Source of the DNA: a virus
Taxonomy: Duplodnaviria; Heunggongvirae; Uroviricota; Caudoviricetes
Strand: one strand, 5' to 3'
IMG/VR virus record: IMGVR_UViG_2909303794_000007
DNA length: 37,027 bases
In this document: piece by piece, positions 9,449-32,608 of the stretch
Position numbering within the stretch: the stretch's first letter is position 1
Layout: every line of letters starts with the position of its first letter
Notes under the pieces: model-generated
Databases searched by the model: none
Seen by the model: only the letters and a program-made list of their open reading frames with translations
What the model was told of the DNA's origin: nothing
Program-made: the position numbers and the translations under genes

Positions 9449-10809
9449 CGTCCACCTCCGGAGAACAGGCCACCATCACGCATCTGTGTCTGAATTTCAT
9501 CACGGGCACCCTTGCGGGCCATGTCATACACCGCCTTCAGAGCAGCCGGACCTATCTGCCCGTTCGTGCCGTCGTTGTTAATCACCACATGGTTATTCTG
9601 CTCAAACGTCCCGGACGCCTGCGACCGGCTGTCTGCCATGCTGCCCGGTGTACCGACATAACCGCCGGTGGCATAGCCGCGCATCAGCCGGTAAAGATTC
9701 CCCACGCCAATCCGGCTGGTTGCCTCCTTCGTGAAGACAAACTCACCACGGTGAACAATCCCCGCTGGCTCATATTTGCCGCCGGTTCCCGTAAATCCTC
9801 CGGTTGCAAAATGGAATTTCGCCGCAGCGGCCTGAATGGCTGTACCGCCTGACGCGGATGCTCCACCACTGGCAGCACCGCCAATGGCGCTGCCGATACT
9901 CCCGACAATCCCCACCATTGCCTGCTTAAGCAGAATTTCTGTCATCATGGACAGCACGGAACGGGTGAAGCTGCGCCAGTTCTGCTCACTGCCGGTCAGC
10001 ATCGCCGCCATATTTTGTGCAATACCATCAAAGGTCTGCGTGGCTGCACTTTTAACCTGCGACATACTGTCCGTGGCGCTCTCTTCCCACTCACTCCAGC
10101 CGGACTTCAGGCCTGCCATCCAGCTCCCGCGAAGCTGGTCTTCAGCCGCCCAGGTCTTTTTCTGCTCTGACATGACGTTATTCAGCGCCAGCGGATTATC
10201 GCCATACTGTTCCTTCAGGCGCTGTTCCGTGGCTTCCCGTTCTGCCTGCCGGTCAGTCAGCCCCCGGCTTTTCGCATCAATGGCGGCCCGTTTTGCCCGT
10301 TGCTGCTGTGCGAATTTATCCGCCTGCTGCGCCAGCGCGTTCAGGCGCTCCTGATACGTAACCTTGTCGCCAAGTGCAGCCAGCTGGCGTTTGTACTCCA
10401 GCGTCTCATCTTTATGCGCCAGCAGGGATTTCTCCTGTGCAGACAGCTGGCGACGTTGCGCCGCCTCCTCCAGTACCGCGAACTGACTCTCCGCCTTCCA
10501 CAAATCCCGGCGCTGCTGGCTGATTTTCTCATTCGCTCCGGCATGCTTCTCCAGCGTCCGGAGTTCTGCCTGAAGCGTCAGCAGGGCAGCATGAGCACTG
10601 TCTTCCTGACGATCGCCCGCAGACACCTTCACGCCGGACTGTTTCGGCTTTTTCAGCGTCGCTTCATAATCCTTTTTCGCCGCCGCCATCAGCGTGTTGT
10701 AATCCGCCTGCAGGATTTTCCCGTCTTTCAGTGCCTTGTTCAGTTCTTCCTGACGGGCGGTATATTTCTCCAGCGGCGTCTGCAGCCGTTTGTAAGCCTT
10801 CTGCGCCTC
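9445..10809 (-). pseudogene. H: Tape-measure protein H, 5'-truncated at the IS1 boundary (C-terminal ~455 codons remain)
   Basis: The frame is open from the IS1 end at 10809 to the stop at 9445 and matches the lambda H C-terminal half (...EAQKAYKRLQTPLEKYTARQEELNKALKDGKILQADYNTLMAAAKKDYEATLKK...GGLFSGGGR). The N-terminal half of H is absent. Confidence 0.9.
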
Positions 10810-10864: not shown

Positions 10865-11140
10865 GTGGCTTCTGTTTCTATCAGCTGTCCCTCCTGTTCA
10901 GCTACTGACGGGGTGGTGCGTAACGGCAAAAGCACCGCCGGACATCAGCGCTATCTCTGCTCTCACTGCCGTAAAACATGGCAACTGCAGTTCACTTACA
11001 CCGCTTCTCAACCCGGTACGCACCAGAAAATCATTGATATGGCCATGAATGGCGTTGGATGCCGGGCAACAGCCCGCATTATGGGCGTTGGCCTCAACAC
11101 GATTTTACGTCACTTAAAAAACTCAGGCCGCAGTCGGTAA
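10865..11140 (+). CDS. insA: IS1 InsA
   Basis: 91 aa, [43 protein letters not shown]... Confidence 0.95.
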
Positions 11141-11562
11141 CCTCGCGCATACAGCCGGGCAGTGACGTCATCGTCTGCGCGGAAATGGACGAACAGTGGG
11201 GCTATGTCGGGGCTAAATCGTGCCAGCGCTGGCTGTTTTACGCGTATGACAGGCTCCGGAAGACGGTTGTTGCGCACGTATTCGGTGAACGCACGATGGC
11301 GACGCTGGGGCGTCTTATGAGCCTGCTGTCACCCTTTGACGTGGTGATATGGATGACGGATGGCTGGCCGCTGTATGAATCCCGCCTGAAGGGAAAGCTG
11401 CACGTAATCAGCAAGCGATATACGCAGCGAATTGAGCGGCATAACCTGAATCTGAGGCAGCACCTGGCACGGCTGGGACGGAAGTCGCTGTCGTTCTCAA
11501 AATCGGTGGAGCTGCATGACAAAGTCATCGGGCATTATCTGAACATAAAACACTATCAATAA
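11059..11562 (+). CDS. insB: IS1 InsB reading frame (expressed as InsAB' by programmed -1 frameshift)
   Basis: 167-aa ORF in the -1 frame relative to insA, ending ...[11 protein letters not shown]. Confidence 0.9.
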
Positions 11563-11578
11563 GTTGGAGTCATTACCT

Positions 11579-11803
11579 ATGTCATCAAAGAACAGAACCC
11601 GCAGAACAACAACCCGCAACATCCGATTTCCAAACCAGATAATTGAACAAATTAACATCGCTCTTGACCTGAAAGGTTCAGGTAATTTTTCAGCGTGGGT
11701 TATTGAAGCCTGCAGAAGAAGATTAATTAATGAAAAATATTCTCAATTTGTACCCAACAAAGACAAACACGACCAGAGCACCTGTTCAGACAGGTTTACT
11801 TAA
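11579..11803 (+). CDS. Small ribbon-helix-helix (CopG/Arc-like) DNA-binding protein (~74 aa, start MSSKNRTRR...)
   Basis: Predicted beta-strand RNIRFP, then helices NQIIEQINIAL and NFSAWVIEACRRRL, the typical RHH pattern. ATG is 1 nt downstream of the IS1 right end; the track ORF starting inside IS1 (MESLP...) is an artefact. Confidence 0.45.
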   Translation: MSSKNRTRRTTTRNIRFPNQIIEQINIALDLKGSGNFSAWVIEACRRRLINEKYSQFVPNKDKHDQSTCSDRFT

Positions 11804-11820
11804 ACGACTTATATATGACA

Positions 11821-11849
11821 CAAAAAGCGACCACTAAAGTCGCTTTTTC
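11821..11849. terminator. Bidirectional terminator between the convergent RHH and PerC-like genes
   Basis: aaaaagcgaccactaaagtcgcttttt: stem gcgac/gtcgc flanked by A- and T-runs. Confidence 0.5.
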
Positions 11850-11884
11850 TTATGGTAACAGGCAATAACTCTCTCAGATATTTT

Positions 11885-12199
11885 TTAGCATTTTTTTGAC
11901 CGCGCGTTTCCGGACGTATTCTGTTCTCCTGTCCCTTTATATCGTCGGAATACCCGCCGCTCTTCAAATCCCATTCCCAACTCAGAATGTAGTCTGTTGA
12001 CCGCTTGTTTTATTTCGGTCAGGTTCACCGGTGAAACCGGAGTCCGGCGCGCCTTACGCAAACACTCTGCTCGTTTCTGTGCCGCCACTTTTCTTTTCTG
12101 GTCATCACTTAGCTGTACCATCACTTTTGCCCATCGTTCAGCTGCTCTCCGGTACAGTCCTTTTTTCTCCAGACATTCTGCCACGTGATCATGTAGCAT
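11885..12199 (-). CDS. PerC-family transcriptional activator (Pch-like, 104 aa)
   Basis: Motif AECLEKKGLYRRAAERWAKVM resembles the PerC/Pch signature (LExKGLWRRAAxRW) as I remember it; the size matches PchA/B/C. Preceded by ~460 bp of AT-rich non-coding DNA. Confidence 0.55.
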   Translation of the reverse strand: MLHDHVAECLEKKGLYRRAAERWAKVMVQLSDDQKRKVAAQKRAECLRKARRTPVSPVNLTEIKQAVNRLHSELGMGFEERRVFRRYKGTGEQNTSGNARSKKC

Positions 12200-12664
12200 A
12201 AGTGACCTCCGATTATCTACAGACTGCCATCCTGAATTTACCTTCCCTTAATGAAATAACAATAAAAAACAAGCCACGCAAAAACAATAAAACAACACAC
12301 AAAAAAAACTAAATAATAAACAAAAATAATCACCTTATTTTATTATTTTTTGAGGGAGCAATTACTGAACAAAAAACGCTGACTATATACTCAAAACCAA
12401 ACAACTATTCTGCCAATCAGGTATCATGGCAACACACGGAATTACCGTGTTTTTGCCTTCTCTGCCCATACAATACGGGCATATACTTCATTCTCTATTG
12501 TAATATTTCTATCCATGTGCCCCACTCCATTTACCTGTAAATAATATTCAAAATATTTATCACAGAAATCGTTTTTGGCCATGAACTGAGCACACTATAA
12601 AGTCCGGAACTGACTCTTTGTTAAATTACCTTAACGTTACCAGTAACACCTTCATAACAAAACA

Positions 12665-13132
12665 TCACGGTATACACTGGGTACGGATATATTCCTGTGC
12701 TCCTTCCAGTTGCTTCTGCATTGCCATCAGCCGTTCTCTGAGGATGAAATAATCCCGTTCAGCGGCTTCTGCCAGTCGGGGGCCGGTTGCATTATCCACG
12801 CCGGAGGTGCCGGTGGCTTCACGCACGGTACCGGAGCAGGTGGCGTTGATCCGCAGGCGCTTACGACCAGCGGCAACATCAGCACGCAGAGTTTCATTTT
12901 CAGCTCTCGCATCGGCTAATTCCCTCGAGTATCTGGCATCAAGTGCAGCGACATCACGCTGGCGTATCTGCATATCAGTAATTGTCGCGTTCGCCAGCTC
13001 CAGCTCACTGGCTTTTTTATCGCGCTGCTCTTTGTAGATGATGGCGTGATCACGGTAATGATTCAGCCCCAGACTAAGCGCACCACAGGCCACCAGCAGG
13101 ACAATGATAACCACGCACAGAACACGGTTCAT
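12665..13132 (-). CDS. Rz: Rz i-spanin (start taken at MNRVLCVVIIVLLVACG...)
   Basis: N-terminal transmembrane helix then a coiled-coil-rich periplasmic region; last gene of the lysis cassette; GGTGGTG Shine-Dalgarno upstream of the ATG at 13132. The track ORF extends to 13189. Confidence 0.8.
   Translation of the reverse strand: MNRVLCVVIIVLLVACGALSLGLNHYRDHAIIYKEQRDKKASELELANATITDMQIRQRDVAALDARYSRELADARAENETLRADVAAGRKRLRINATCSGTVREATGTSGVDNATGPRLAEAAERDYFILRERLMAMQKQLEGAQEYIRTQCIP
12727..12912 (-). CDS. Rz1: Rz1 o-spanin lipoprotein embedded in Rz in another frame
   Basis: MKLCVLMLPLVVSACGS... lipobox followed by a proline-rich sequence (PPAPVPCVKPPAPPAWIMQPAP), wholly inside Rz. Confidence 0.8.
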   Translation of the reverse strand: MRELKMKLCVLMLPLVVSACGSTPPAPVPCVKPPAPPAWIMQPAPDWQKPLNGIISSSENG

Positions 13133-13467
13133 ATCACCACCAACGGATTGCCCAGACCAGAACAGCAATGGCCACAATACGAATGGCAAAAGCTGCCGCT
13201 CTTGTTAAATCCAGACTGGCTGGCGTCTCCACTTCAATGCCTTTCATAATGGACAACCTCAGAAAGAATCTTTTATACTTCCTCACAGGGAAAGTACCTC
13301 CCTACCCATAATTTCTCCCTTGCCTTACTCAAGGTCAGAAAACACAAAACCCCGCTTGCTGCCAACAAACGGGGTTTTTACTTTTATTCACTTAGGTTTT
13401 ACCAGTTTTCAGGATTTCGTGTTATCCACCCGCGTTGGCCAACGTCATTTTTCAGGAAAATATTCTG

Positions 13468-14001
13468 CTATCTGTCGATGTCCCAGCACGCCAGCGCGCT
13501 CTCCTGGTCACGCCGTGAGACCTGACCGTAGCAATTATTTGAACGGATACGGCAGTCTCTGCCACCGTCCTTAATCCACCAGCGAATCGCCTCACAGGCA
13601 CCTTTTCGATCGCCTGCATTAATTCGTTTATAAAACGTCGACGGGAAGCACTTACCGGGGCCAATGTTGTACGGACAGAATGACGCGATCCCCGCTTTCT
13701 GGGGTTCGGTCAGCGGCACCCGGATGTTTTTCTCCACCCATGCCAGCGCCTTGTCACGTTCGATGGCATTAACCCGGTCGCATTTTTCCTTTGACAGCTT
13801 CATGCCAGGAATAACAGGCTTACCATCCACCAGAATGGCACCACGGCAGATGGTCCAGATCCCCGCACCATCACGGTATGCCGTGGTGTGGTTACCTTCC
13901 TTTTCATCCAGAAACTGGTCGAGGATTTCAGGCGCAGAAGCACCTGCACCAATCAGCGCCAGAACGGCAGCCGACAGGCCGTATTTTATTTTTTCGTTCA
14001 T
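13468..14001 (-). CDS. R: SAR endolysin (lysozyme R, phage-21/933W type)
   Basis: 177 aa; N-terminal weakly hydrophobic Gly/Ala-rich SAR segment (LSAAVLALIGAGASAPEIL), then a lysozyme-like domain. Confidence 0.85.
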   Translation of the reverse strand: MNEKIKYGLSAAVLALIGAGASAPEILDQFLDEKEGNHTTAYRDGAGIWTICRGAILVDGKPVIPGMKLSKEKCDRVNAIERDKALAWVEKNIRVPLTEPQKAGIASFCPYNIGPGKCFPSTFYKRINAGDRKGACEAIRWWIKDGGRDCRIRSNNCYGQVSRRDQESALACWDIDR

Positions 14002-14118
14002 GGGGATTTATCGATTTCTAATCCCTTGATATGTTAGGTATATAATCAAACACTCATGGTCGCTCTCATAAACATATCCCTTGAGACGCAGCAGATTACA
14101 ACAAATGAAGCCATATAA

Positions 14119-14433
14119 ATGAACAGTAAAGAAAGTTTGCGCAGAAGATTTTTACAACTAATGACAGAAAACGTTAAATCAGAGTTACTTCTTCTGATGG
14201 CAGATAATAACGAAGCAACAAGCAGCATTCTTGCAGACCCTTACGGTAAGATCTCACATAAAACGCTGGATATTATTACCACAACATTAACACCGCTGAT
14301 GCTTCAACGGCTGAAACATAATATCAACGCATGGGTTAATGAAGAATTAAGTCCTCCCTGTTTATGGGATTCTCGTTACGCATGTCAGCAAAAAATGCGA
14401 ATTTTCAACTTACTATCACCAAAGCTCAGGTAG
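14119..14433 (+). CDS. Hypothetical protein (104 aa) encoded on the opposite strand inside an AT-rich insert between S and R
   Basis: Only sizeable ORF in the ~690-bp AT-rich block separating holin from endolysin; no recognisable family. Confidence 0.35.
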   Translation: MNSKESLRRRFLQLMTENVKSELLLLMADNNEATSSILADPYGKISHKTLDIITTTLTPLMLQRLKHNINAWVNEELSPPCLWDSRYACQQKMRIFNLLSPKLR

Positions 14434-14688
14434 CCATAAAATCCTGCCCTTCATGGCATACAGGATTTCAATGGAATCACAATGACCAACTCTTGCACAG
14501 CTGTATCCCTGACTCCCCGACAACTCAGATTTTCAGTATCTGCTGCTATCTAAAGAGAAAGCGCACAAATGCAAGGGCCTTTCATCACGTCCTGTTATTG
14601 ATTGCCTGTGACCTTTTCTTACCTCATGGAACGTTTTTTCAGTTAGAAATATTCATTTTACAACCAGTTCGTATTGTTTATTCATCGA

Positions 14689-14895
14689 CTACTCTCCCCG
14701 CGCCACCTTACGACGGTCCTCTCTGATTTTGAAATACAGGTTAGTCAGATACGTCAGCAGGCCAAACAGCAGACTCCCCAGCACACCTATCGCCACCCAC
14801 TGGGACGGAGAGACTTTGTCCAGCAGCTGCAGTAACCAGTATCCCGTCCCCACCGCTGACGTGGTGTATGACACACCCGTTGTGATTTTTTCCAT
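14689..14895 (-). CDS. S: Class II holin / pinholin (S21-like)
   Basis: 68 aa, [68 protein letters not shown], closely matches the phage 21 S pinholin; two transmembrane segments. Confidence 0.85.
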
Positions 14896-15150
14896 CTGAT
14901 GTATGTCTCCGTCACCGCCGACAGAAAATGAAAGTAAAGGAAAACAAAAAAGCCGCCAGTGTCACCCACTGACGGCCAACGCCGGGAGCCGTGATTATGG
15001 CATTCAGGCTCTGCTAAAAATGCCAGATAACATTCCGGCCTCCCCCGATTCAGGTTATAAATGACACAATATCTTGACAACATCCGTCACTGTCTGTCAG
15101 AAAATGTACTGCCATATAGAAGCAACATGTGAAGTACATCTATCCTTTTG

Positions 15151-15193
15151 AGCCAGCACCTCTCCACCGAAAGTCAGTGCTGGCTGTTTTTTT
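15151..15193 (+). terminator. Plus-strand rho-independent terminator hairpin (module 1)
   Basis: agccagcac...gtgctggct stem followed by T7. Confidence 0.5.
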
Positions 15194-15300
15194 CCTTAAT
15201 AAAGCATCTGTAACTGAAACAATCCGCATATTGATAATATATTGACAGGCATCATTGCTGTCTGTGAAAAATAAGTCTCTACAAACATATAAGGCCTTTT

Positions 15301-15342
15301 AGCCAGCGTCTTCTTTTTCAGGTCAGTCGCTGGCTTTTTTTA
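15301..15342 (+). terminator. Plus-strand rho-independent terminator hairpin (module 2), abutting the esterase stop codon
   Basis: agccagcg...cgctggct stem followed by T7. Confidence 0.5.
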
Positions 15343-17193
15343 TTATGCTGCCGGTGCATTTATCTCCAGCACCAGACTTTCTATCTCAACGCCATACGCT
15401 GCATTTTTTGTAACATCCGTCAGCGTCAGCGCATTCAGTCCCAGTGTCAGACTGTCTTTTATAACCTGGAATGCCGGGCCAGCCACTCCATTCAGTTTCG
15501 GAGTAACCGTGGCACTGCCGGCGGTGAACACCAGCTCCAGCGTCTGCCAGTCGTTACCGTAATCGCCGAACTCCCCCAGCTTCGTGTTTCCGGCTTTCCT
15601 GTGATGCATCAGATTCACTCTGCCGTCAGTGGTCTGAGTGAAGTACGACATCAGGAACGGATTACCGGTACCCGTCATCGCCACACCATCAGGAACGGGA
15701 GCATCCGTATACAGATAAATCCCCAGCCCGAACTGATTGTTGGTCAGTGCGCCTGACAGGCGGAACTTACAGGTCAGTCTGCCGCCCTGTGTCAGCAGGG
15801 TAATTGCGTCATCCACCGGATGCGTCAGGGACCAGGTTTTATTGCTCTGCTTGGTGATCTTAAATACACCATCTGACAACTGAATTCCGCCATCCTTAAT
15901 GCTCCAGCCCTGCGCAGCAGCCTCTCCGGCTGCCGGCAGCAGGGAGATTGTGCGAACCGACGTATCTGCAGACGGACCCGATGGCGTGTTGCCGCCGGGC
16001 GAGGGTTTGATTTCCGGTGCCTTACCACTGATGAAGGCTGAGGTGCGCCCGGCTGCGTTCAGAATAGCGGTTGCCAGACGATCCGGAATAATGCTCCTGC
16101 GCGCCCATGAACTGAAATGTGTCGGGCGGTTTGATGATACCTGGTTTCCATTCGTTCTCGATGCCGCACCGTAATATCCTGATGCCGGAATATCCGGATC
16201 TTCTGCCGGCGCGTTAGTGGCGGTATTGACGCCGTTACCGTCTGTCATGAAGGGCACAAAATAAACGCCCTCACTCTCCCTGTTTTTATACCCGCCGTAC
16301 ACGGTGTCGTACTGGGTAGCGTATGTATTTTTCCAGTAATACGTCGTGTCACCACAAATCCACGGCACATCTGCAGCACTGCCACCATGGCACTGCGCGT
16401 TAAACACGGAGAGGTCAGCACGAAACTGTGTCAGCATGGCTGTAAACAGCGCAGGTTGCTGTGCGTGGGTGGCGGCGCTCATGTCAAACTCTCCCTGCAT
16501 CCAGCACACCGCCAGCAACACATTTTTCGGGTTCTTCTGTAATGCAGCTTTAGTGCGCGCAATCAGGTCCTGATATAACGGTTTACCCACACCCCAGCGT
16601 GCCGAATCCTGGCTGGCCCCCGTGTCCGCACTGAATGTCCCCTCAGCGCCCTGGGTGAATGCAGAACCACCACGACAGCATGGTACCAGCAGGATCCCCG
16701 CGTTATTCGGGATATACGGAAGCAGTTTTTTGGCAATATGTAAGCCCTGGCCGACACAGCCGTACTGCCCTTTGCTCAGGTCTGCCTTCGGATGATTCAG
16801 CGTACTCATATCCTGCACATCATGCAGGCAGTGGTCGGCCGGAATAATATCGTTATATCTGCAGGCAGCCCCACCCGGCGTAACTGTACTGCGGCGCGCC
16901 AGCTGTTTAATGCGCGGATCCGGAGCATCGTATGAATCCGGAAGCGGAAGCCCTTCCCCGTAAGCCATTGCATTGGACTGCCCGGCCAGTACGATGACGT
17001 AGTACCAATCCGGCTCAGTTGCACCACTGACCACCACATCACCTTCTGCTGCAATCGCCTGCATCAGGGTATAAGGGGTTATGGCCACCGGACTACCAAA
17101 CGGCTGCCAGCCCTCTTTCAGTTTGTGTGTCAGCTTTTCCGCAAGGTCTGACGGCGACGCCGCCCTGACAACATCATAATGTTTAATCGACAT
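15343..17193 (-). CDS. nanS-p: Prophage sialate O-acetylesterase (NanS-p-like; DUF1737 N-domain plus SASA/NanS esterase domain plus C-terminal extension)
   Basis: 616 aa; YYVIVLAGQSNAMAYGEGLPLPD...CCRGGSAF...CWMQGEFD... matches E. coli NanS (YjhS) as I recall it. Sits where Stx phages carry this gene, downstream of the toxin locus. Confidence 0.8.
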   Translation of the reverse strand: MSIKHYDVVRAASPSDLAEKLTHKLKEGWQPFGSPVAITPYTLMQAIAAEGDVVVSGATEPDWYYVIVLAGQSNAMAYGEGLPLPDSYDAPDPRIKQLARRSTVTPGGAACRYNDIIPADHCLHDVQDMSTLNHPKADLSKGQYGCVGQGLHIAKKLLPYIPNNAGILLVPCCRGGSAFTQGAEGTFSADTGASQDSARWGVGKPLYQDLIARTKAALQKNPKNVLLAVCWMQGEFDMSAATHAQQPALFTAMLTQFRADLSVFNAQCHGGSAADVPWICGDTTYYWKNTYATQYDTVYGGYKNRESEGVYFVPFMTDGNGVNTATNAPAEDPDIPASGYYGAASRTNGNQVSSNRPTHFSSWARRSIIPDRLATAILNAAGRTSAFISGKAPEIKPSPGGNTPSGPSADTSVRTISLLPAAGEAAAQGWSIKDGGIQLSDGVFKITKQSNKTWSLTHPVDDAITLLTQGGRLTCKFRLSGALTNNQFGLGIYLYTDAPVPDGVAMTGTGNPFLMSYFTQTTDGRVNLMHHRKAGNTKLGEFGDYGNDWQTLELVFTAGSATVTPKLNGVAGPAFQVIKDSLTLGLNALTLTDVTKNAAYGVEIESLVLEINAPAA

Positions 17194-17507
17194 CGAATTT
17201 CTCCCGTGTACAGGAACAGAGTTAAAAAGCCGGAACCGGAATCAAATCACAGGATGACCATCTGCCAGTGGCTGGTCGTAAAAAAAAGGCCGCGCCATGC
17301 GCAGCCGGAAATAAAGGGATAACGATGATAGTTTGAGAAAAACAGAAATAACACTTTTGTGGCAAAGCATGGTGCCGGGTGCCTCCCGGTGAATTCAGTA
17401 CCAGCACCTGAATCCGCGATTATCCCATATACCTACTCGCTGATTGCCCCTCCGCACAGGGGGATTCACCATGCAGAAGTGTTTTTAATAAACAGCAAAC
17501 AAAAAAA

Positions 17508-17675
17508 TCAAGCATTATGCAGGCTGTTTCTTTTTATCACCGGCCACAGCAATACCACAATGCCGCAGACCAGCACCCCATCCGCCAGCACCGACATGAT
17601 TCTGCTGGTGAAATCCACCATCACCACCAGAAACAGCAGGAGTGCAGCCACAGTCAGGCGCAGTTTTACCGTCAC
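17508..17675 (-). CDS. Possible small membrane peptide (GTG start overlapping the TerB-like stop)
   Basis: VTVKLRLTVAALLLFLVVMVDFTSRIMSVLADGVLVCGIVVLLWPVIKRNSLHNA; GTGA start/stop overlap with the upstream gene; hydrophobic. Confidence 0.25.
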   Translation of the reverse strand: MTVKLRLTVAALLLFLVVMVDFTSRIMSVLADGVLVCGIVVLLWPVIKRNSLHNA

Positions 17676-18104
17676 AGGTGATTCTCCAGACGAAGACCCA
17701 GAACACCGGCAATCTCTTCCAGCACCTTGCGCTCTTCCGGCTCAATTTCGCCGTCTGCCTCCGCAATGGCCACCGCCACATCCAGCACATCTTCCGCTTC
17801 ACGCGTATCGTGTTTCACATCCTCGATCTCACGTAACGCCGCACGACGACCAATTTTAAAGTTCGTATCCAGCTGACCGATAATGGTTGCGCTAATCGCA
17901 TTAATTTCTGACGTAAACGCGGACAGCGCAGGCTGATTACGCAGTACCTGTTCGATCTTCGCTTTCTAGGAAGCCTCACATTCACCATCTGCACAGGCCA
18001 CCAGGTATGCGGCGTTAATCACCACCTGTGCCAGATCGCGTTTTTCAAACTTTTTAATTTCCGTTGCCGCTCTGCGGGCTTTTTTTACCAAAAATACCAA
18101 ACAT
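17672..18104 (-). pseudogene. TerB-like (tellurite-resistance-family) gene disrupted by a homopolymer frameshift and an in-frame amber codon
   Basis: MFGIFGKK is followed by a frame change at a T7/A7 run (18080-18086), then ...KKFEKRDLAQVVINAAYLVACADGECEAS, a TAG (minus-strand codon at 17966-17968), then KAKIEQVLRNQPALSAF...DVLDVAVAIAEADGEIEPEERKVLEEIAGVLGLRLENHL. Confidence 0.6.
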
Positions 18105-18273
18105 CGTGACGTTCCTTTGGGTGGGTGAGCCAACGCCCGGGAGCGATCTGCCCACAGAGAAAGTCACACTGACCACTCCGTAAGCTCACCCCCGAAAGGC
18201 TCTGTGGTTGATATGCACCGGGCGTGGCGCAGATACAAAAAAGGCCCGCCGAAGCGAGCCTGGAAAATAAGTG

Positions 18274-18350
18274 TGGCGCGTTGTAGTGGAGTCGAACCAC
18301 TGACCGATTGCTTAGAAGGCAATTGCTCTGTCCGGCTGAGCTAACAACGC
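18274..18350 (-). tRNA. tRNA-Arg (anticodon UCU), phage argN/argO-like
   Basis: Reverse complement GCGTTGTTAGCTCAG...ATTGC-CTTCTAA-GCAAT...GGTTCGACTCC...ACAACGC-G-CCA: cloverleaf with anticodon loop CU-UCU-AA, T-arm GGTTCGACTCC and a 3' CCA. Confidence 0.85.
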
Positions 18351-18387
18351 AGAATACCGATAATGGACCGCCATCGGGGACCCGCCC

Positions 18388-19725
18388 CATAAGCGCTAAC
18401 TTAAGGGTTGAACCATCTGAAGAATGCGACGCCTCGGTGCCTCGTTAAGACGATGCCTCGCGTTCTTCAATTGCGTTTTGTAGGCTGTCAGGGATACTGT
18501 CCCACGAATGGCCACCTGTAAGCTCCAGATGACCATTTTTGTTATTCTCCACAACGAGTTAGTTCTTCTTTTCGGATCCGGCACTTCTGGGGGGGAAATC
18601 CAGCGATGGCTGGATTATGTCGTCAATTAAAAATGCGGCGAGTAGATTAGCAAATATCCACGCTTTCGCGAGTTCAGGTTCCTTTGCACGCAAAGCATCC
18701 AGGTGCAGCAAACTTTTGAGCCGCTTAAAAGCCAGTTCAATTTGCCATCGCAGACGGTAACAATCAGCCACTTGCTCTGCTGAATATTCATCTTCCGGTA
18801 ATGATGTTAGCAATAGCACATGGCCCGCTGCTTCCAGCGTTTCCGCCTGAACTACTCGTCCTTTTCGACGATTCTCGCTGAGCAGTCGGGTTTTACTGAT
18901 TAATGCTTTTTCGGGAGGAAGTGATACGGCAATGAGACGTGCCGGAAAGGGAGCTCCGGCTTTTTTATTACCTGAATTGCCTATCATTACAGTGGTTTCA
19001 CCGTTCTTACCGCAATCCAGCCCGCGCAGAAAACCCATCATGTCAAAGCGCATTCCTTCTGCAGTTAACCAGCGCAATCCTCGCCAGTGAACCCGGACGA
19101 TATAATCAGCTTCTCCAAAAGCAAGTGAGCGGATACATTCGGGACGCGAACCGAATCCCCGGTCAGCAATGCGTATCTCGTCTGCCGTTTGCGCAAATCG
19201 GTCCAGCCGTTCAGCGTCTCTGCTGTCGGTTAGCTCAAAATCAGTGAACTGACAGGTATGAGGATCATATCCCATATGTAGTCGCCATTCAGCGCTGCCG
19301 CCCCCGGGCGCACTGATTGCTGTTCCATCGACAAGACGCAATCTCTTTCCGCTTGTACAACCCGTAACTGCGGCGCGTACAGCAAGTGTTTGTGCGGCAA
19401 GTATGCCAAACCAGTCGGCGGCATTCCGCAGCCGCTTCAGGAGAGCCACGTCAGATAATGTTGCAACGTCATGGAGCTGAGCCCATGCAGTGACTTCACG
19501 TAATGACATCCCCCGGGGCCGTAAGCCAGCCCCAGACGTAGCAGAGTTGCAGCATCACGAATTTCGCGGCGGCGGGTTAGAGCCCCGGCATTACGTGCCG
19601 AAGTATCCAGTTCTTCGGGCTTACCAATATGGGCCAGAATTGCTGACCAGTTATCGTGAGAGTAATTCATCGGCACGTTAAATCATATCAGGCGTAATAC
19701 CACAACCCTTAAGTTAGCGCTTATG
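18388..19725 (-). mobile_element. IS186 (1338 bp) inserted into a GC-rich hairpin between the two phage tRNA genes
   Basis: Terminal inverted repeats cataagcgctaacttaagggttg (18388-18410) and caacccttaagttagcgcttatg (19703-19725), flanked by a direct repeat GGACCCGCCCC (~11 bp) at 18377-18387 and 19726-19736. Confidence 0.9.
18559..19676 (-). pseudogene. IS186 transposase (IS4 family) with a 1-bp frameshift near 19510-19514
   Basis: N-terminal ORF MNYSHDNWSAILAHIGKPEELDTSARNAG...GLAYGPGG and C-terminal ORF MSLREVTAWAQLHDV... are in different frames; one extra base in the G/C run would join them. Confidence 0.75.
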
Positions 19726-19798
19726 GGACCCGCCCCCGCACCAACAACCCTGTTATGGTGTCGTCTGCTCTTCCTGATAAGCTAATGGCGGTATGTGA

Positions 19799-19874
19799 TG
19801 GTGGCCCTTGCTGGATTTGAACCAGCGACCTGGCGATTATGAGTCGCTCGCTCTCACCACTGAGCTAAAGGGCC
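19799..19874 (-). tRNA. ileZ: tRNA with anticodon CAU, Ile2-like (phage ileZ-like)
   Basis: Reverse complement GGCCCTTTAGCTCAGTGGTGAGAGCGAGCGACTCATAATCGCCAGGTCGCTGGTTCAAATCCAGCAAGGGCCACCA closely resembles E. coli tRNA-Ile2 (ileX/ileY). Confidence 0.85.
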
Positions 19875-19923
19875 GGGACCAGAATAATAATGGTGCGAAA
19901 TTAATTCTGCAATCTCATCCGTT

Positions 19924-20973
19924 TCAAACGATTAAATCCTGAACTTCCCTGACTGTCTGCTCAAAACGTTCAGTCTCCAGCTCAACGCCAATTGCACGAC
20001 GCCCGAGCGCCAGTGCCGCTTTTACCGTTGAACCTGAGCCCATAAAAAAATCTGCAACCAGGTCACCCGGACGACTGCTTGCGCTGATTATCTGCTGCAG
20101 CATTTCTGCCGGTTTTTCGCACGGATGTTTCCCGGGATAGAACTGCACCGGTTTATGTGTCCACACATCCGTGTACGGCACCTGCGCCGTCACACCAAAA
20201 TACCGCCGCAGATGCTTATATTCACTCTGCAGCTCCGCATACTGTCGGTTCAGAGAGGCATACGTATCCACCAGCTGGTGGTGGGGCTTTTCCAGTTCAC
20301 CCCGCTGATGCTTCTCTTCTGCCACCCGGGCAAACAGTGCCTGTAATTTCAGATAATCGCTTTCGTTCGGCAGCTGCCACTGACCGGCACTGAACCAGTG
20401 CGACACCATGTTTTTCTTTCCTGTGGCATCTGCAATCTGTTTTGCCGTTATCCCCAGGACAGCGCGCGCATCACGAAAGTAAGCAATCAGCGGGGCCATC
20501 ACATGCTGTTTCAGTGCCCTACCCTTCGCCTCATACCCGGCATCTTTCGGACGATACGGCCCCTGATAATGCTCTGCGAACAGAATGCGCTCTGTGGCGG
20601 GGAAATACGCCCGCAGGCTTTCCTTGTTGCACCCGTTCCAGCGTCCGGACGGCTTTGCCCAGATGATATGGTTCAGCACGTTAAACCGCTCACGCATCAT
20701 GATTTCGGTGTCAGATGCCAGACGATGGCCACAGAACAGGTAAAGACTTCCGGCAGGTTTCAGCACCCGCCAGAACTGCGCAAGACACTGGTCCAGCCAC
20801 TTCAGGTAATCTTCATCACCCGCCCACTGGTTATCCCAGCCCTCGGGTTTCACTTTGAAGTACGGCGGGTCCGTGACTATCAGGTCAACAGAATTTTCGG
20901 GTAACGACCGCATAAATTCCAGGCAGTCGGCGTTGATTAACTCACAACTGGATATTTTTACAGTATTAAGCAT
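19924..20973 (-). CDS. DNA methyltransferase (amino-methyltransferase, beta-class motif order: DPPY near the N-terminus, SAM-binding FxGxG near the C-terminus); no cognate endonuclease seen
   Basis: 349 aa; LIVTDPPYF (motif IV) and DLVADFFMGSGST (motif I). Confidence 0.8.
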   Translation of the reverse strand: MLNTVKISSCELINADCLEFMRSLPENSVDLIVTDPPYFKVKPEGWDNQWAGDEDYLKWLDQCLAQFWRVLKPAGSLYLFCGHRLASDTEIMMRERFNVLNHIIWAKPSGRWNGCNKESLRAYFPATERILFAEHYQGPYRPKDAGYEAKGRALKQHVMAPLIAYFRDARAVLGITAKQIADATGKKNMVSHWFSAGQWQLPNESDYLKLQALFARVAEEKHQRGELEKPHHQLVDTYASLNRQYAELQSEYKHLRRYFGVTAQVPYTDVWTHKPVQFYPGKHPCEKPAEMLQQIISASSRPGDLVADFFMGSGSTVKAALALGRRAIGVELETERFEQTVREVQDLIV

Positions 20974-21123
20974 GGATCATTAAGCCTGTCTCTGATAGGC
21001 TCATTCTGCTTTTGCGCAAAGCAGTGGGCCTGAGGTTTGCTTGTGAACCCAACGCATGAGCAGATGGCTGGTGGGTGCCCCTTACACCCACCAGCCGCCC
21101 ATTTACCACAAATAAAAAAGCCT

Positions 21124-21321
21124 TCAGGACTGAAGGCGTCTGTAACAACCAAACTGATAGTCTGCCAGACCCGCCATAACCAGCTGGGTCAGTATTAACT
21201 GGCAGCGTTCGCGTGAAAGGTAAGTATTCTGCGCAATCTCCCCGACTGTCGCCGGGTCGGTAACGCTTAATTCATTAAACACCACTCTGGCGGTTTCTGT
21301 CATATCCTGCTGTTTCAGCAT
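21124..21321 (-). CDS. Small hypothetical protein with a possible winged-helix motif (~65 aa, start MLKQQDM...)
   Basis: AAGGGA Shine-Dalgarno 8 nt upstream of the ATG at 21321; the 106-aa track ORF is probably over-extended. Confidence 0.35.
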   Translation of the reverse strand: MLKQQDMTETARVVFNELSVTDPATVGEIAQNTYLSRERCQLILTQLVMAGLADYQFGCYRRLQS

Positions 21322-21447
21322 GTCTTTTTCCCTTTTCCGGTTAACGTGACACACCAATAACTCTTGTCGAAAAAGCCAGCAACCTGAAAGAACGGTATTA
21401 ATAACCACCAGCGAATTTATTGCGCTGCTGTATATTACGGACACAAA

Positions 21448-21476
21448 AAAACCACCTTCCGGTGGCTTCCTTGTGC
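21448..21476 (-). terminator. tR'-like rho-independent terminator downstream of the Q-position gene
   Basis: Minus strand: gaagCCACCggaaGGTGGttttttt, a short GC stem plus U7, ~90 bp downstream of the 180-aa gene. Confidence 0.45.
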
Positions 21477-21562
21477 GAAAAAACTTGCATTTCGCCTCGC
21501 GATACAGCTTTGCGAAGCTTACAGGAATTCAAGCTGTTTCTGCGTAAAAAAGCAAGCTTTTT

Positions 21563-22105
21563 TTATCGAAATGAATCGTGCATAGGTACATAAAGCATGT
21601 GTTCAGCCACGGCTAACCAACCTGCAATACGTTTCTCACATGTGCTGAAACACCATTCCGGGTGAGTACGATTTAAACATTCTGCCATTTTTCTCTTACT
21701 CATTCCCCGTCCTTCGTACCTTTGCCGGAGAATATTGATTAGCCCGGGATATTCCCCAAGCACCTCACTGATAACGCGATCAATAATCAACGCCTCTGTG
21801 TCTGTACAATGTGACAACCAGCTCTTCTGCTTCCCTCTGGTCATATCCCGAAAAAATGCCTCAAGTTCCGGTTTTTCCAGCCCGGATTTCTTCATGCTGC
21901 GTAAAACCTCATTAACTGCTGTTTTCGTCAGCTTTTTCGAAACCAGTAACCGGTTAAACATATTTCCGGATTTACCCCCACCGATATACGACCACCGCCC
22001 CCACATCCGTAATTTCCCCTGGATCCAGACTGCTTCCAGCGTGTTCAGGCGTAAATGTTCGCCGCTTTTGCCTGTAATTTCCGGATATATCATATTTACG
22101 CTCAC
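21563..22105 (-). CDS. Protein occupying the late-antiterminator (Q) position; family not assigned (not lambda-Q-like; possibly DUF1133 or a Q21/Q82-type antiterminator)
   Basis: 180 aa; start overlaps the rusA stop; immediately upstream of the tR'-like terminator and the late genes. No similarity to lambda Q that I can see. Confidence 0.35.
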   Translation of the reverse strand: MSVNMIYPEITGKSGEHLRLNTLEAVWIQGKLRMWGRWSYIGGGKSGNMFNRLLVSKKLTKTAVNEVLRSMKKSGLEKPELEAFFRDMTRGKQKSWLSHCTDTEALIIDRVISEVLGEYPGLINILRQRYEGRGMSKRKMAECLNRTHPEWCFSTCEKRIAGWLAVAEHMLYVPMHDSFR

Positions 22106-22461
22106 TCACTCTCAATTTTGTAAATCTTCACACCCAGCCGTCCACCAGATACTGGCTGACCACGTACAATATTGATTTCATCAAACTGCTCATCGTCCAT
22201 TAGCACCCCCGCATGCGTCAGCGCATCCAGCGGCGCTTTCAGAATATTGTCCAGGTCACGGCGGCGCTTATCCGGTGGCTCGGCAATAATCTTTATCGCC
22301 AGCCTTCCGGACAGGTTTAATTTCAGCCGCTGCTGGCGAACAATAAGTGCCACATCCCGGCGATAACGCTCACCGGCTTTTGATACAAAATATGTGCTGC
22401 CACGACGTCGCCAGTAGGTGTTCACCGTCGGCGGGTAAGGCAAAACAAACTCTATACGCAT
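22102..22461 (-). CDS. rusA: RusA-family Holliday junction resolvase
   Basis: 119 aa; ...PPDKRRRDLDNILKAPLDALTHAGVLMDDEQ... matches the RusA catalytic region (DRRRRDLDN...DAL). Confidence 0.85.
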   Translation of the reverse strand: MRIEFVLPYPPTVNTYWRRRGSTYFVSKAGERYRRDVALIVRQQRLKLNLSGRLAIKIIAEPPDKRRRDLDNILKAPLDALTHAGVLMDDEQFDEINIVRGQPVSGGRLGVKIYKIESE

Positions 22462-22473
22462 CAGTAACCTCTT

Positions 22474-23520
22474 TTACCCGAGCACGCCGGTTGCAAAGGC
22501 GTGATCAAGAAAACGAAAAATTAAATCAACCTGGGAACCATGCTTTTCTTCGAACGCCAGCGGATCCGCATGAAGCTCGTTGTGATGCTCCCGACACAGC
22601 GGTAGCGTGAAAATATCGTGGGATTTTGTTCCCATTCCGCCCTGACCATGACCAATCAGATGATGAGGATCGTCCGCTGGCTTACCACAACACGCACACG
22701 GCTGTGTCTTTACCCAGCGTGTGTATTTCTCATTTACCCAGCGGCGACGTTTAGGTCGTTTCATGAAGGATTCCGGAGACTCCGGATCAACGGCAATGCT
22801 TACCACCGTCTTTTCCTGTGGCGGGTTTTGCTGGTGGGCGTGAGGCAGCGGCGCAAGATTTTTTGTGCGCTGTTTCAGGATGCTGGTGGCTGTCTGTTCT
22901 CCCGGTATGATGTCGCTTTCGCGGTACACCGAGCGGATTTTTTCCGCACGTAACCCCAGAGAACGACGTAATGCTGCCTCTGGTAGCGCATCCGCCACCT
23001 GATTGCAGACCGCCCACCAGGATAATTCACCCAGAGATAATTCCCGCTCCTGCGTGCCATTCATTGCATGGCGTATGACGTCAATCATCCATGCTGACAA
23101 ATTTTGGTGAGCAAGTTGCCCGAGTGATTCGGAGGTCTGGTCACGCAACTGGTTGTCGCAGTGCCAGCACAACACCATTGCGCCGGTACCATAACGGTGA
23201 ATGACAGTTTCGCTGTGGTGATAATCGCCGTGTGGCCACTGGCAGGATTTAATATGGCGCAACAGCCAGTCAGACAATGCACCAGCACCACCAGCAGCAC
23301 GAATCACTCGTTCGTCGCTGAAAAATGGCAGCAATGTTTTGTCTTCCACCAGCGGATGGCGAACGGCAGGAACGACCCCGGACGGCAGATTACGCATGCT
23401 TTTCGGTTCCGGCTCCACCAGTACCCGGGTATTGTGAAATACCTGCATGGATTCACGACCTGGCTTAAGGGCCACCAGCCCGAGTTCCGGTACCAGAACA
23501 GGTCGAAGTAATACCCGCAC
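22474..23520 (-). CDS. DUF968 (YdfU-like) prophage protein with HNH-like C-terminus
   Basis: 348 aa; C-terminal CACCGKPADDPHHLIGHGQGGMGTKSHDIFTLPLCREHHNELH; sits upstream of rusA/Q as ydfU does in Qin. Confidence 0.7.
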   Translation of the reverse strand: MRVLLRPVLVPELGLVALKPGRESMQVFHNTRVLVEPEPKSMRNLPSGVVPAVRHPLVEDKTLLPFFSDERVIRAAGGAGALSDWLLRHIKSCQWPHGDYHHSETVIHRYGTGAMVLCWHCDNQLRDQTSESLGQLAHQNLSAWMIDVIRHAMNGTQERELSLGELSWWAVCNQVADALPEAALRRSLGLRAEKIRSVYRESDIIPGEQTATSILKQRTKNLAPLPHAHQQNPPQEKTVVSIAVDPESPESFMKRPKRRRWVNEKYTRWVKTQPCACCGKPADDPHHLIGHGQGGMGTKSHDIFTLPLCREHHNELHADPLAFEEKHGSQVDLIFRFLDHAFATGVLG

Positions 23521-23521
23521 G

Positions 23522-23800
23522 TTACCTCCAGATCCGTTGCTGGAATGTGCGGGACGGACGCGGTGGGCGTTCGGAGTAAGGAAGCCTGACGGAGATTATC
23601 CAGTGACGGTAGTCGAGGCTGAGGGCTTTCTTAATCTCGTATCCGCGCCTGCGGTAACACTGAATCAGCCATTCAGCCTGTTCTTCGGTGCAGGGGTCGT
23701 GCTGATACCAGTCAGATTTGAATGCATGAGAACGCCGCCCGTGCCTGCTGGCAGGGGCGGCAGAGTTATCCGAATTGTAAAATTTGGTATCGTGCGCCAT
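23522..23800 (-). CDS. Hypothetical protein (Rem-like position between hok and DUF968); start taken at MAHDTKFY...
   Basis: ORF adjacent to the DUF968 gene; the assignment is positional only. Confidence 0.35.
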   Translation of the reverse strand: MAHDTKFYNSDNSAAPASRHGRRSHAFKSDWYQHDPCTEEQAEWLIQCYRRRGYEIKKALSLDYRHWIISVRLPYSERPPRPSRTFQQRIWR

Positions 23801-23967
23801 CTGTTTTCTCTGCTGGCGCAGCAGGTGCCAGTTGTTCAGGCTGACGGATGGATTGTAAACCAGAACGACCAGAAAAAACAAAACCCGCCGAAGCGGGTTA
23901 AGTGCGGGTGCGTTGAGGATGCCTGACACATCAGCGGTGGCGAGGGATTTCTCCCCCGCCTGGTCTC

Positions 23968-24123
23968 TTACTCCTCAGGTTCGTAAGCTGTGAAGACAGC
24001 GACCTCCGTCTGGCCGGTTCGGATTCGTACCTCGCAGAGGTCTTTCCTCGTTACCAGTGCCGTCACTATGACGGTTAAACAGATGACGATCAGGGCGATT
24101 AACATCGCCTTTTGCTGCTTCAT
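23968..24123 (-). CDS. hok: Hok/Gef-family type I toxin
   Basis: MKQQKAMLIALIVICLTVIVTALVTRKDLCEVRIRTGQTEVAVFTAYEPEE matches the Hok family (transmembrane helix, then RKxLCExR...EVAAF). Confidence 0.75.
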   Translation of the reverse strand: MKQQKAMLIALIVICLTVIVTALVTRKDLCEVRIRTGQTEVAVFTAYEPEE

Positions 24124-24194
24124 AGCCTGCTTCTCCTGTGTAAGTTCACAGAGATATTGCAATTGCCTCCGGATAAGTAAGGGGAGATTGCACT

Positions 24195-25283
24195 ATGCAA
24201 ATGCAGCATCTGATGGTTGGCTATCCTAAGTACTACCAAACGGCCGATTATGCGTTGAGGCTTTCAGTGATGGCTGATATAGCAACAATGAGAATGAAGG
24301 CTCTGCACTTCTGGGATAAACACGGTATTTCTGCAGCTTCTGAAGCCTTTGGCGTGTCCTGCCGCACGCTTTACTGGTGGCGTCAGTTACTGAACAAGGA
24401 AGGACCTGAGGGGCTAATCCCGCACAGTAAGGCACCTCTGGTGCGACGAAAAAAACACTGGCATCCCGATGTGCTGAAAGAGATTCGACGCCTCAGGACA
24501 GAGCTGCCGAACCTCGGTAAAGAGCAGATTTTTGTTCGCCTGAAGCCCTGGTGCGAACAGCGCTATCTGGCCTGTCCGAGTGTTTCCACCATCGGCAGAA
24601 TGATCGCTGCCGCACATGATAAAATGCGGATGATACCTGTGCGTCTGGGATCGCGGGGGAAGGCACTGCTTGTCAAAAAGCGGTCTGCCAAACCCCGCAG
24701 GCCAAAGCACTACCGCCCGGTAAAGACAGGTGAGCTCATTGGGATGGACGCCATTGAGCTCAGAATGGGCGAACTGCGTCGCTATGTCATCACCATGATC
24801 GACGAATGCAGCAATTACGCGCTGGCGCTGGCTGTGCCGTCACTCAACAGTGATATCGTCAATCACTTCTTCAGCCGCGCAGCCCGGTTGTTCCCGGTCG
24901 GTATCAGCCAGATAATCACAGATAACGGAAAAGAGTTCCTGGGAAACTTCGACAAAACGCTGCAGGAAGCCGCTATCAAACACCTCTGGACCTATCCCTA
25001 CACGCCAAAAATGAACGCTATCTGTGAACGTTTTAACCGGACGTTAAGAGAGCAGTTTATTGAATTTAATGAGATTTTACTCTTTGAAGATCTGGCGCTA
25101 TTTAACCAGAAGCTGGCGGAATATCTGGTGCTGTATAACAGCAAAAGACCCCACAAGGCGCTCGCACTAATGACGCCCGTGGAATATATTTTAAAAGAGA
25201 ATAAAAATTGCAATATGTGGTGGACCCATACATCTCCTTGCCTTTCGGCACGTAAGAGGCTAACCTACGTTTGTGAAGCATAG
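24195..25283 (+). CDS. DDE-type transposase/integrase (rve superfamily, N-terminal HTH; IS481-like single-ORF layout)
   Basis: 362 aa; N-terminal HTH region, central ...IITDNGKEF... and C-terminal ...YNSKRPHKAL... typical of the integrase core domain. The only plus-strand gene in a minus-strand block. IS ends not identified. Confidence 0.65.
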   Translation: MQMQHLMVGYPKYYQTADYALRLSVMADIATMRMKALHFWDKHGISAASEAFGVSCRTLYWWRQLLNKEGPEGLIPHSKAPLVRRKKHWHPDVLKEIRRLRTELPNLGKEQIFVRLKPWCEQRYLACPSVSTIGRMIAAAHDKMRMIPVRLGSRGKALLVKKRSAKPRRPKHYRPVKTGELIGMDAIELRMGELRRYVITMIDECSNYALALAVPSLNSDIVNHFFSRAARLFPVGISQIITDNGKEFLGNFDKTLQEAAIKHLWTYPYTPKMNAICERFNRTLREQFIEFNEILLFEDLALFNQKLAEYLVLYNSKRPHKALALMTPVEYILKENKNCNMWWTHTSPCLSARKRLTYVCEA

Positions 25284-25689
25284 ATTGGGCCTCAGATTAA
25301 TGTTAAGCGTCTTGCAGGACGCGTAATGTTAACTGGGGCTTTTCTCTGTCTGCCTTACGGTGGCATGCCCGAGGCAGACAGCCTCAAGCACCCGCAGCAA
25401 TTCTACTTAACTCTCGCTTTACCGCAAACCGTTTTTACCCGATATGGGAATTCCCATATCGTAATGAATTCAGTTCCCTAGTCGATCCATCAAAAACACA
25501 ACCAGGCAGTAAACGCCCACAACAGCAACAACAGCCAGCGCACCTTCCATTGCCAGTGATATATCATCCGACATATTCCCTCCTTTGGTGTTAATCCCGG
25601 CGAACGTTTTTACCCTCACCGACAAATAACATATACTAAAAAAGCGATAGCCATAGCAACGCCTGTAATTGCAAATGCTTCAGGCCAGT

Positions 25690-32552: not shown

Positions 32553-32608
32553 TTTCTGGTGACGTTTGGCGGTATCAGTTTTACTCCGTGACTGCTCTGC
32601 CGCCCTTT
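32553..32608 (+). ncRNA. dicF: DicF small RNA homologue (cell-division-inhibiting sRNA)
   Basis: tttctggtgacgtttggcggtatcagttttactccgtgactgctctgccgcccttttt matches DicF as I remember it (3' intrinsic terminator ggcgg...ccgcc-U5) and lies immediately upstream of dicB as in Qin. Confidence 0.6.

Follow-up and report, generated by a model that had tools for sequence, protein, structure and literature searches.

Does a prophage locus that has the layout of a Shiga toxin (Stx) locus and holds no toxin genes record the loss of the toxin, or does it carry a cargo of its own? The question was raised by IMG/VR virus record IMGVR_UViG_2909303794_000007 (Caudoviricetes), a stretch of 37,027 nucleotides (nt), the whole of which is referred to here as the window. 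In an earlier note, made from the sequence alone, positions 17508–19874 were read as an Stx-type scaffold in which tRNA genes, a decayed TerB-like gene and a copy of the insertion sequence (IS) IS186 stand in the toxin position. The interval is very probably better described as an accessory-gene ("moron") slot in the late operon of a non-Stx lambdoid prophage of enteropathogenic/enterohaemorrhagic Escherichia coli (EPEC/EHEC) type, with the genes tciA and tciB (tciAB) as its cargo.

The slot and its flanks

The late-regulatory and lysis region of the lambdoid prophage occupies window positions 11578–25423 and is carried on the minus strand in the order Q-like gene, terminator, methylase, tRNA(CAU), IS186, tRNA-Arg(UCU), dead tciA, tciB, NanS-p, holin, endolysin and Rz. 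Using Pfam, ARAGORN and Rfam, the order proposed in the earlier note was confirmed: a gene in the Q position, a tR'-like terminator, two tRNAs, the NanS-p esterase and then S, R and Rz. As in Stx loci, a Q-like gene followed by a stem-loop and T7 run stands upstream of the cargo, antitermination itself being a prediction, and nanS-p followed by the S-R-Rz lysis genes lies downstream. The stxA and stxB genes that an Stx-converting phage carries between its tRNA genes and nanS-p are absent.

For detection of stx, tblastn was run over the whole window with the A and B subunits of Stx2a and Stx2e, giving a best E value of 0.4, and a sensitive blastn search of the whole window matched only the argO terminator that is shared with Stx phages. 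The statement that no stxA- or stxB-like open reading frame (ORF) is present, on which the earlier note had staked its view, was thereby borne out at both the protein and the DNA level.

The flanks of the slot could be aligned closely with those of stx loci. On the left, 19767–21453 (methylase and ileZ) is 93.6% identical to the Stx2a phage Stx2_EH1910, the match starting at 21453 within the terminator, and an identity of 90.6% to this phage holds over 18215–18384, which covers argO with its terminator plus the 3' end of the argN position. No base separates the tRNA(CAU) from its Stx2_EH1910 copy; the argO genes of the window and the Stx2a phage differ at three T-arm positions, two of which compensate each other as a G/C swap within the stem. 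The match to Stx2a and Stx2e phages stops at 18215–18226, just past the hairpin of the argO terminator (18242–18261, minus strand). It resumes, with Stx1a and Stx2a phages, at about 17488–17492, 16–20 bp past the tciB stop codon, starting at TTCTGCATGGTGAATCCCCCTGTGCGGAGGGG, which is the conserved 5' hairpin of a small RNA (sRNA) of the STnc100 family. This predicted sRNA, of the STnc100/PasD family, lies at 17331–17503 on the minus strand and gives a full-length match to Rfam RF02076 at 101.5 bits, above the gathering threshold of 47; the core shared with Stx phages ends at 17488. Farther to the right, the window matches Stx1a phages at 98.8% identity over 14650–17206, a stretch that reaches from the holin region to the end of NanS-p. 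Bounded in this way by the argO terminator on the left and the conserved sRNA hairpin on the right, the slot measures 722 bp (17493–18214), compared with 1358 bp in the Stx2a phage.

Both the Stx2a phages of the 933W type (Stx2_EH1910, LC567834) and the Stx1a phages (Stx1_14040, LC567819) share with the window the methylase, ileZ and argO with its terminator on the left, and the sRNA core, NanS-p and holin on the right; stxAB fills the slot there, and their Q genes differ from that of the window. Between the shared flanks, then, the cassette differs by phage and is stx1, stx2 or tciA-tciB. The description as an Stx-type scaffold therefore holds in that the flanks are homologous to stx loci over stretches of 90.6–98.8% identity, but not as a mark of Stx phages, since the layout is not specific to them. 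The ileZ-spacer-argO segment was found in 2,600 of 5,426 complete E. coli genomes, and nanS-p genes are present in many Stx and non-Stx prophages (PMC8065619).

A recurrent synteny of TerB, RusA, esterase, STnc100/PasD and holin has also been reported (Zhu, Shabalina, Storz, bioRxiv 10.64898/2026.05.13.724894). The window resembles the PasD/STnc100-esterase-PasA/PasC-holin arrangement in having an STnc100-family sRNA directly upstream of the esterase, with TerB and RusA among the conserved neighbours.

The tciA-tciB cargo

The first gene of the cargo, tciA (17672–18104, minus strand), is a pseudogene of the TerB family. Its A run at 18080–18086 holds seven A against six in the intact alleles of JLK-2012 and PPyecE_EH1910, producing a +1 frameshift, and a GAG codon has become the amber codon TAG at 17966–17968. 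Removal of one A restores a 143-amino-acid (aa) TerB-domain protein save for the amber codon (Pfam TerB 6e-14); as the sequence stands, no TerB-domain protein of about 143 aa is encoded. Alignment to the intact alleles thus upheld the decayed TerB-like gene of the earlier note, with both of its lesions, and supplied its name. The small GTG-initiated membrane ORF noted beside it proved to be tciB (17508–17675, minus strand), an intact gene for a 55-aa DUF3927 membrane protein (Pfam DUF3927 3e-17) identical to WP_000216653.1 of the relatives. The GTG start of tciB overlaps the tciA stop codon as GTGA and is preceded by a GGAG of its own. No full-length TciA would be expected from this locus, and tciB could still be made from its own GGAG and GTG.

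The closest relatives, a prophage next to tRNA-Ser/mtfA in Z1323HEC0423 (NZ_CP148334.1) and a match in 14EC017 (NZ_CP024134.1), are 98.8–100% identical to the window over 11578–25423 and have the same gene order, the same tciA frameshift and amber codon, and the same tciB. Both lesions also occur together in O157:H7 PV15-279. Because they are found together in these three other genomes examined, the frameshift and the amber codon are evidently inherited and not sequencing noise. In the relatives the annotation pipeline PGAP picks a TTG start for tciA that hides the frameshift, with the result that only the internal stop is flagged.

Intact tciA-tciB pairs occupy the same slot in other prophages. 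In O157 PA11, phage JLK-2012 and PPyecE_EH1910, tciA-tciB, NanS-p and holin are found in this arrangement, with tciA intact (143 aa) and no IS186. The tRNA genes upstream vary among the three: PA11 has ileZ, a relic and argO, with a spacer 99.3% identical to that of the window, JLK-2012 has Asn, Thr and Gly tRNAs, and PPyecE_EH1910 has none. Across the complete E. coli genomes, tciA-tciB was located in 839 of 5,426, at 3,936 places in all (median of 6 copies per positive genome), and the carriers are mostly O157, O111, O145 and O26-type strains and their relatives. When phage records were matched with TciA (131 records), no Stx-named class appeared among the ten commonest organism-name classes; Stx-named records matching the flanks number well over 200. 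Taken together, these distributions indicate that tciA-tciB is a standard alternative cargo and not debris of toxin loss.

The amber allele of tciA in PV15-279 stands directly behind a different Q gene and without tRNAs, from which it would follow that late-region modules reassort freely. Between the window and JLK-2012, homology runs from tciB through the 5' region of tciA and then takes in the last 25 nt of the neighbouring tRNA (window 18274–18298; JLK-2012 record 7994–8018), which is an Arg tRNA in the window and a Gly tRNA in JLK-2012. Recombination that moves the cargo module may have its junctions at the 3' ends of tRNA genes.

A more distant likeness is seen in phage P1, whose tciA-tciB-tciC genes include a TerB-family TciA 52.8% identical to that of the window with a small TciB next to it. 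P1 differs in that it is not lambdoid and carries its tci genes outside any Q-dependent late slot; the prophage of the window has no tciC. A literature search on tciA/tciB and on ileZ/argN/argO returned almost nothing relevant.

The third tRNA position

Two tRNAs of the locus are callable. The ileZ-type tRNA(CAU) lies at 19799–19874 (ARAGORN; Rfam tRNA 72.5 bits) and the argO-type tRNA-Arg(UCU) at 18274–18350 (ARAGORN; Rfam 67.3 bits), both on the minus strand; PGAP labels the CAU tRNA of the relatives tRNA-Ile, as expected for ileZ. The claim that only two tRNAs are present, where Stx phages usually have ileZ, argN and argO, is accurate for callable tRNAs, but the third position is not empty: it is filled by an 80-nt element of the argN family that is not callable as a tRNA. 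In the window this element is interrupted by IS186. Its 5' part (66 nt, 19726–19791, minus strand) was recognized by alignment to the argN of the Stx2a phage and its 3' part (24 nt, 18364–18387, minus strand) completes it; each includes one copy of the target duplication, and the two pieces minus the 10-nt duplication rebuild exactly the 80-nt element of Z1323HEC0423.

Over its whole length, the 100-bp spacer that separates the tRNAs can be aligned with the argN of the Stx2a phage, which is a callable tRNA-Arg(UCG) there, unlike the element of the window. The same 7-bp acceptor stem and the same discriminator and CCA are retained, and the D-arm is similar. The anticodon arm is scrambled, and the T-arm reads CGGGG-GCGGGT-CCCCG against CGGGG-TTCGAGT-CCTCG in argN. 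A real third tRNA in the spacer was considered and rejected, as the uninterrupted Z1323HEC0423 copy went uncalled both by ARAGORN and by the Rfam tRNA model, the latter even at E<=10. On this evidence the 80-nt element is called an argN-family relic. Spacers of the relic type at >=95% identity were present in about 1,600 records.

The Stx2e prophage ETEC1748 (NZ_CP122719.1) is similar in having only two callable tRNAs (CAU and Arg-UCU), and its middle element is 90.8% identical to the relic. In contrast to the window, it carries stx2e, and the middle element, labelled tRNA-OTHER by PGAP, keeps a TTCGA-type T-loop; it too was negative with ARAGORN and the Rfam tRNA model. The tRNA sets are known to vary among Stx subtypes, and a two-tRNA arrangement with only Met and Arg tRNAs has already been described for Stx2e phages (PMC7366253).

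An 81-nt tRNA-like sequence about 80% identical to the relic was also seen in the chromosome (E. coli WCHEC96200 record 2501–2581; K-12 at about 345.33–345.41 kb). It lies within xtpA and the start of yahM, overlapping annotated protein genes, and its acceptor stem and D-arm are the same as those of the relic. This chromosomal copy is called by ARAGORN as tRNA-Ser(GGA), the anticodon loop being larger than normal; it receives no score from the Rfam tRNA model. A literature search on xtpA found no relevant paper.

IS186 and its insertion site

The IS186 copy (18388–19725, minus strand) is 1338 bp long with perfect 23-bp terminal inverted repeats, as befits this member of the IS4 family, and is identical to K-12 IS186A save for one G missing from the G6 run at IS position 212. 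Its target is a G-run/spacer/C-run, GGGG-ACCCG-CCCCC, in the T-arm of the relic, and this target exists because the T-loop of the relic has decayed. A target duplication of 10 bp, GGACCCGCCC, is found at 18378–18387 and 19726–19735 (12 bp if ambiguous end bases are counted), and the empty site of Z1323HEC0423 reads GGGGACCCGCCCCC. The placement of IS186 between the tRNAs in such a target was therefore correctly described in the earlier note, and the duplication of about 11 bp given there is to be corrected to 10 bp.

IS186 is known for a strict target consensus of G-run, short spacer and C-run, for a duplication of about 10 bp and for insertion hot spots. SaiSree and colleagues reportedly described one such hot spot, in 2001, in the lon promoter of E. 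coli B. The relic resembles it in the G-run/spacer/C-run target, in the length of the duplication (about 10 bp) and in having been hit repeatedly, in both orientations, at one exact position; it differs in that the lon site is a promoter, whereas here IS186 has entered the degenerate T-arm of a phage pseudo-tRNA.

Insertion at this position has recurred. IS186 occupies an identical base in four prophage backbones, flanked each time by the same 10-bp duplication, in both orientations and as three IS alleles: relative to the plus strand, the element is reverse in the window and forward in 14EC017, each with the G missing at position 212, reverse and intact in CP55_Sichuan, and forward in 2013C-4991 with a C missing at position 1132. 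In total, the occupied site was seen in 8 complete genomes. With one base position occupied by IS186 in at least four backbones, the relic site is an IS186 hot spot that was hit independently in other prophages.

The 14EC017 copy (record 6234–7571) has the same allele, base and duplication as that of the window, in a backbone 99.5–100% identical, and is inverted; the opposite orientation could reflect an independent insertion, a reinsertion or an assembly difference. Inversion of IS186 in situ was considered for it and set aside, as independent insertions at the hot spot are simpler, two further backbones having different alleles at the same base.

Matches to query positions 1–182 in prophages bearing tRNA-Lys were also considered as extra IS insertions. 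They were rejected, as RM14723 is without any other IS186 match. The IS186 terminal repeat (window 18388–18410, …AACTTAAGGGTTG) resembles the anticodon arm of a phage tRNA-Lys(UUU) (…AACTTAAAGGGTTG), a tRNA that replaces argN in some prophages, and BLAST matches are misleadingly extended by this likeness, which is probably a coincidence.

The transposase reading frame (pseudo-coding sequence, 18559–19670, minus strand), which runs in the direction of the phage late genes, is broken by the missing G; the plus strand has C5 at 19510–19514, where K-12 IS186A has six. As the sequence stands, no intact 370-aa transposase is encoded. The frameshift pointed out in the earlier note is thus present in the sequence, but it may be a homopolymer assembly error.

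Probable cassette exchange and the alternatives

By analogy with lambda and Stx phages, late transcription would begin just downstream of Q and, made resistant to terminators by the Q-like protein, would pass through the methylase, the tRNAs, the cargo, the sRNA, NanS-p and the lysis genes, and the cargo would be expressed on induction. IS186 would be oriented with this transcription. The simplest account of the different cargoes would be exchange of cassettes by homologous recombination in the flanks. Several points weigh against this picture of a late-operon cargo slot. Read-through dependent on Q is deduced from position only, because a simple promoter scan downstream of Q found no sigma-70-like late promoter there. 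IS186 might block late transcription, and the names TciA and TciB are taken from the annotation of phage P1 and stand for no more than putative functions. The direction of exchange cannot be read from sequence either, and a clean replacement of stx in an Stx ancestor would look identical.

That last point leads to the toxin-loss explanation, under which an Stx phage lost stxAB and tciA-tciB is a replacement or a remainder. It gains from flanks that are 90–99% identical to those of Stx1a and Stx2a phages, and repeated stx loss has been raised as one possibility for chromosomal esterase-sRNA-holin modules that lack stx (bioRxiv 10.64898/2026.05.13.724894). We nevertheless consider it very unlikely here. 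No stx remnant was found at the protein or DNA level, and what fills the slot is a full cassette of two genes, found intact in many relatives and recurring at thousands of places in E. coli genomes; moreover, the amber tciA allele of PV15-279, behind another Q gene and without tRNAs, argues that these modules reassort. Nothing in the sequence indicates that stx was formerly carried and lost, and because the borders of the cassette are exact and no remnant of stx is seen, cassette exchange is favoured over loss for this lineage.

Two further alternatives concern the apparent decay at the locus. One holds that part of this decay is an assembly error, the IS186 frameshift and possibly the tciA A run being homopolymer miscalls, and that IS186 is actually intact; we regard this as a real possibility, though somewhat short of an even chance. 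The IS186 lesion is a single base gone from a G6 run, and the G5 allele occurs in only 76 of 2,765 IS186-bearing records, scattered over unrelated strains, among them the laboratory strain ER1709. In 2013C-4991 the copy at this site lacks a different single base, from a C7 run of the element, and the whole pattern is typical of long-read homopolymer errors. Against a miscall, however, the closely related 14EC017 has the same G5 allele at the same site, and in tciA the A7 run always travels with the amber substitution, in the window and three other genomes; this lesion is inherited, and tciA is dead either way. The other alternative takes the 80-nt element to be a functional non-canonical tRNA-like RNA, inactivated by the IS186 insertion, and not a dead argN. 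In its favour are the retained acceptor stem, discriminator-CCA and D-arm, an unusual anticodon-arm sequence that it shares with the tRNA-OTHER element upstream of stx2e and with the chromosomal xtpA/yahM copy, and the roughly 1,600 records with the element at >=95% identity. However, neither the Rfam tRNA model (E<=10) nor ARAGORN gives it a score, the yahM-locus copy being likewise negative in Rfam; the T-loop no longer fits the consensus, and an anticodon loop of about 12 nt would result. Recent spread explains why the prophage copies are so alike, and divergent copies were too few for a covariation test. A functional RNA is accordingly most improbable in our view, and it is just as doubtful that a conserved tRNA-like RNA with an expanded anticodon loop is involved for which recurrent IS186 insertion in the T-arm would be a selectable on/off event, affecting the late operon or the RNA.

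Returning to the cargo-slot reading, the locus is of the ordinary tciAB class of non-Stx prophage already found in public annotated genomes; RefSeq already contains near-identical copies (99–100%) that lack the IS or have it inverted. Apart from correct annotation, little hangs on the locus. What it illustrates is a known principle, namely that lambdoid prophages of pathogenic E. coli swap stx1, stx2 and tciAB between conserved late-operon flanks, and because cargo is swapped in this way an stx-like scaffold alone is not evidence of a former toxin phage. To the question posed in the 2026 preprint, the answer suggested for this lineage is that the stx-less esterase-sRNA-holin module reflects an alternative cassette whose borders are exact. 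For annotators, the "missing" argN survives as a relic and constitutes an IS186 hot spot, and single-base frameshifts in the G and C runs of IS186 need a check of the reads before the element is called defective.

Other features of the late region and the prophage

The Q-like gene lies directly after RusA and DUF968, matching the arrangement in relatives. On the minus strand, DUF968 is at 22474–23520, RusA at 22102–22461 and the Q-position gene at 21563–22105; the last belongs to the DUF1133 family (Pfam DUF1133 1e-110) and is related to the phage antiterminator Q (Phage_antitermQ, 35.1 bits; cut-off 26). A tR'-like intrinsic terminator (21445–21465, minus strand) lies some 100 nt beyond the end of Q, with the stem CCACC-GGAA-GGTGG followed by T7. 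It is succeeded on the same strand by a 65-aa ORF (21124–21321) and the N6/N4 DNA methyltransferase (19924–20973; Pfam N6_N4_Mtase 4e-44), after which come the tRNA genes.

Beyond the cargo, also on the minus strand, the STnc100/PasD-family sRNA is followed by a terminator (17288–17306) and the NanS-p type sialate O-acetylesterase (15343–17193), in which Pfam DUF1737, SASA and DUF6645 were matched. The class II holin (14689–14895) was assigned from its translation and the annotation of relatives, and the endolysin (13468–14001; Pfam Phage_lysozyme) and Rz (12665–13189; Pfam Phage_lysis) from Pfam and the annotation of relatives. Two terminator-like hairpins, at 14951–14977 (11-bp stem) and 15022–15039, were noted on the minus strand within the 14896–15342 interval between nanS-p and the holin. 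They sit where the 2026 preprint places the PasA/PasC sRNAs, which is a hint only.

No complete RefSeq genome matches the window throughout. The tail genes and early regions of Z1323HEC0423 and 14EC017 differ from those of the window. At 11059–11562 an IS1 transposase adjoins a truncated tape-measure gene (9445–10689), and about 12 kb of terminase-to-tail genes (terminase, head and tail) of the Z1323HEC0423 prophage are missing at this IS1. Because these genes are missing, the prophage as a whole is defective. An IS481-family element was located at 24195–25283.

At the start of the window, an ORF open from the first base (1–1035, plus strand) contains six EspF repeats (Pfam 1.8e-175) and corresponds to a TccP/EspFu-like type III effector gene. 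It adjoins the tail fibre (1432–2745) and J (3563–7042) genes, and it marks the prophage as a carrier of effectors, of the attaching-and-effacing E. coli type. Two Rfam matches fall in the early region: a sok antitoxin RNA at 25227–25393 (minus strand; 112 bits), near the position at which hokD is annotated in relatives, and DicF at 32554–32605 (plus strand; 77 bits).

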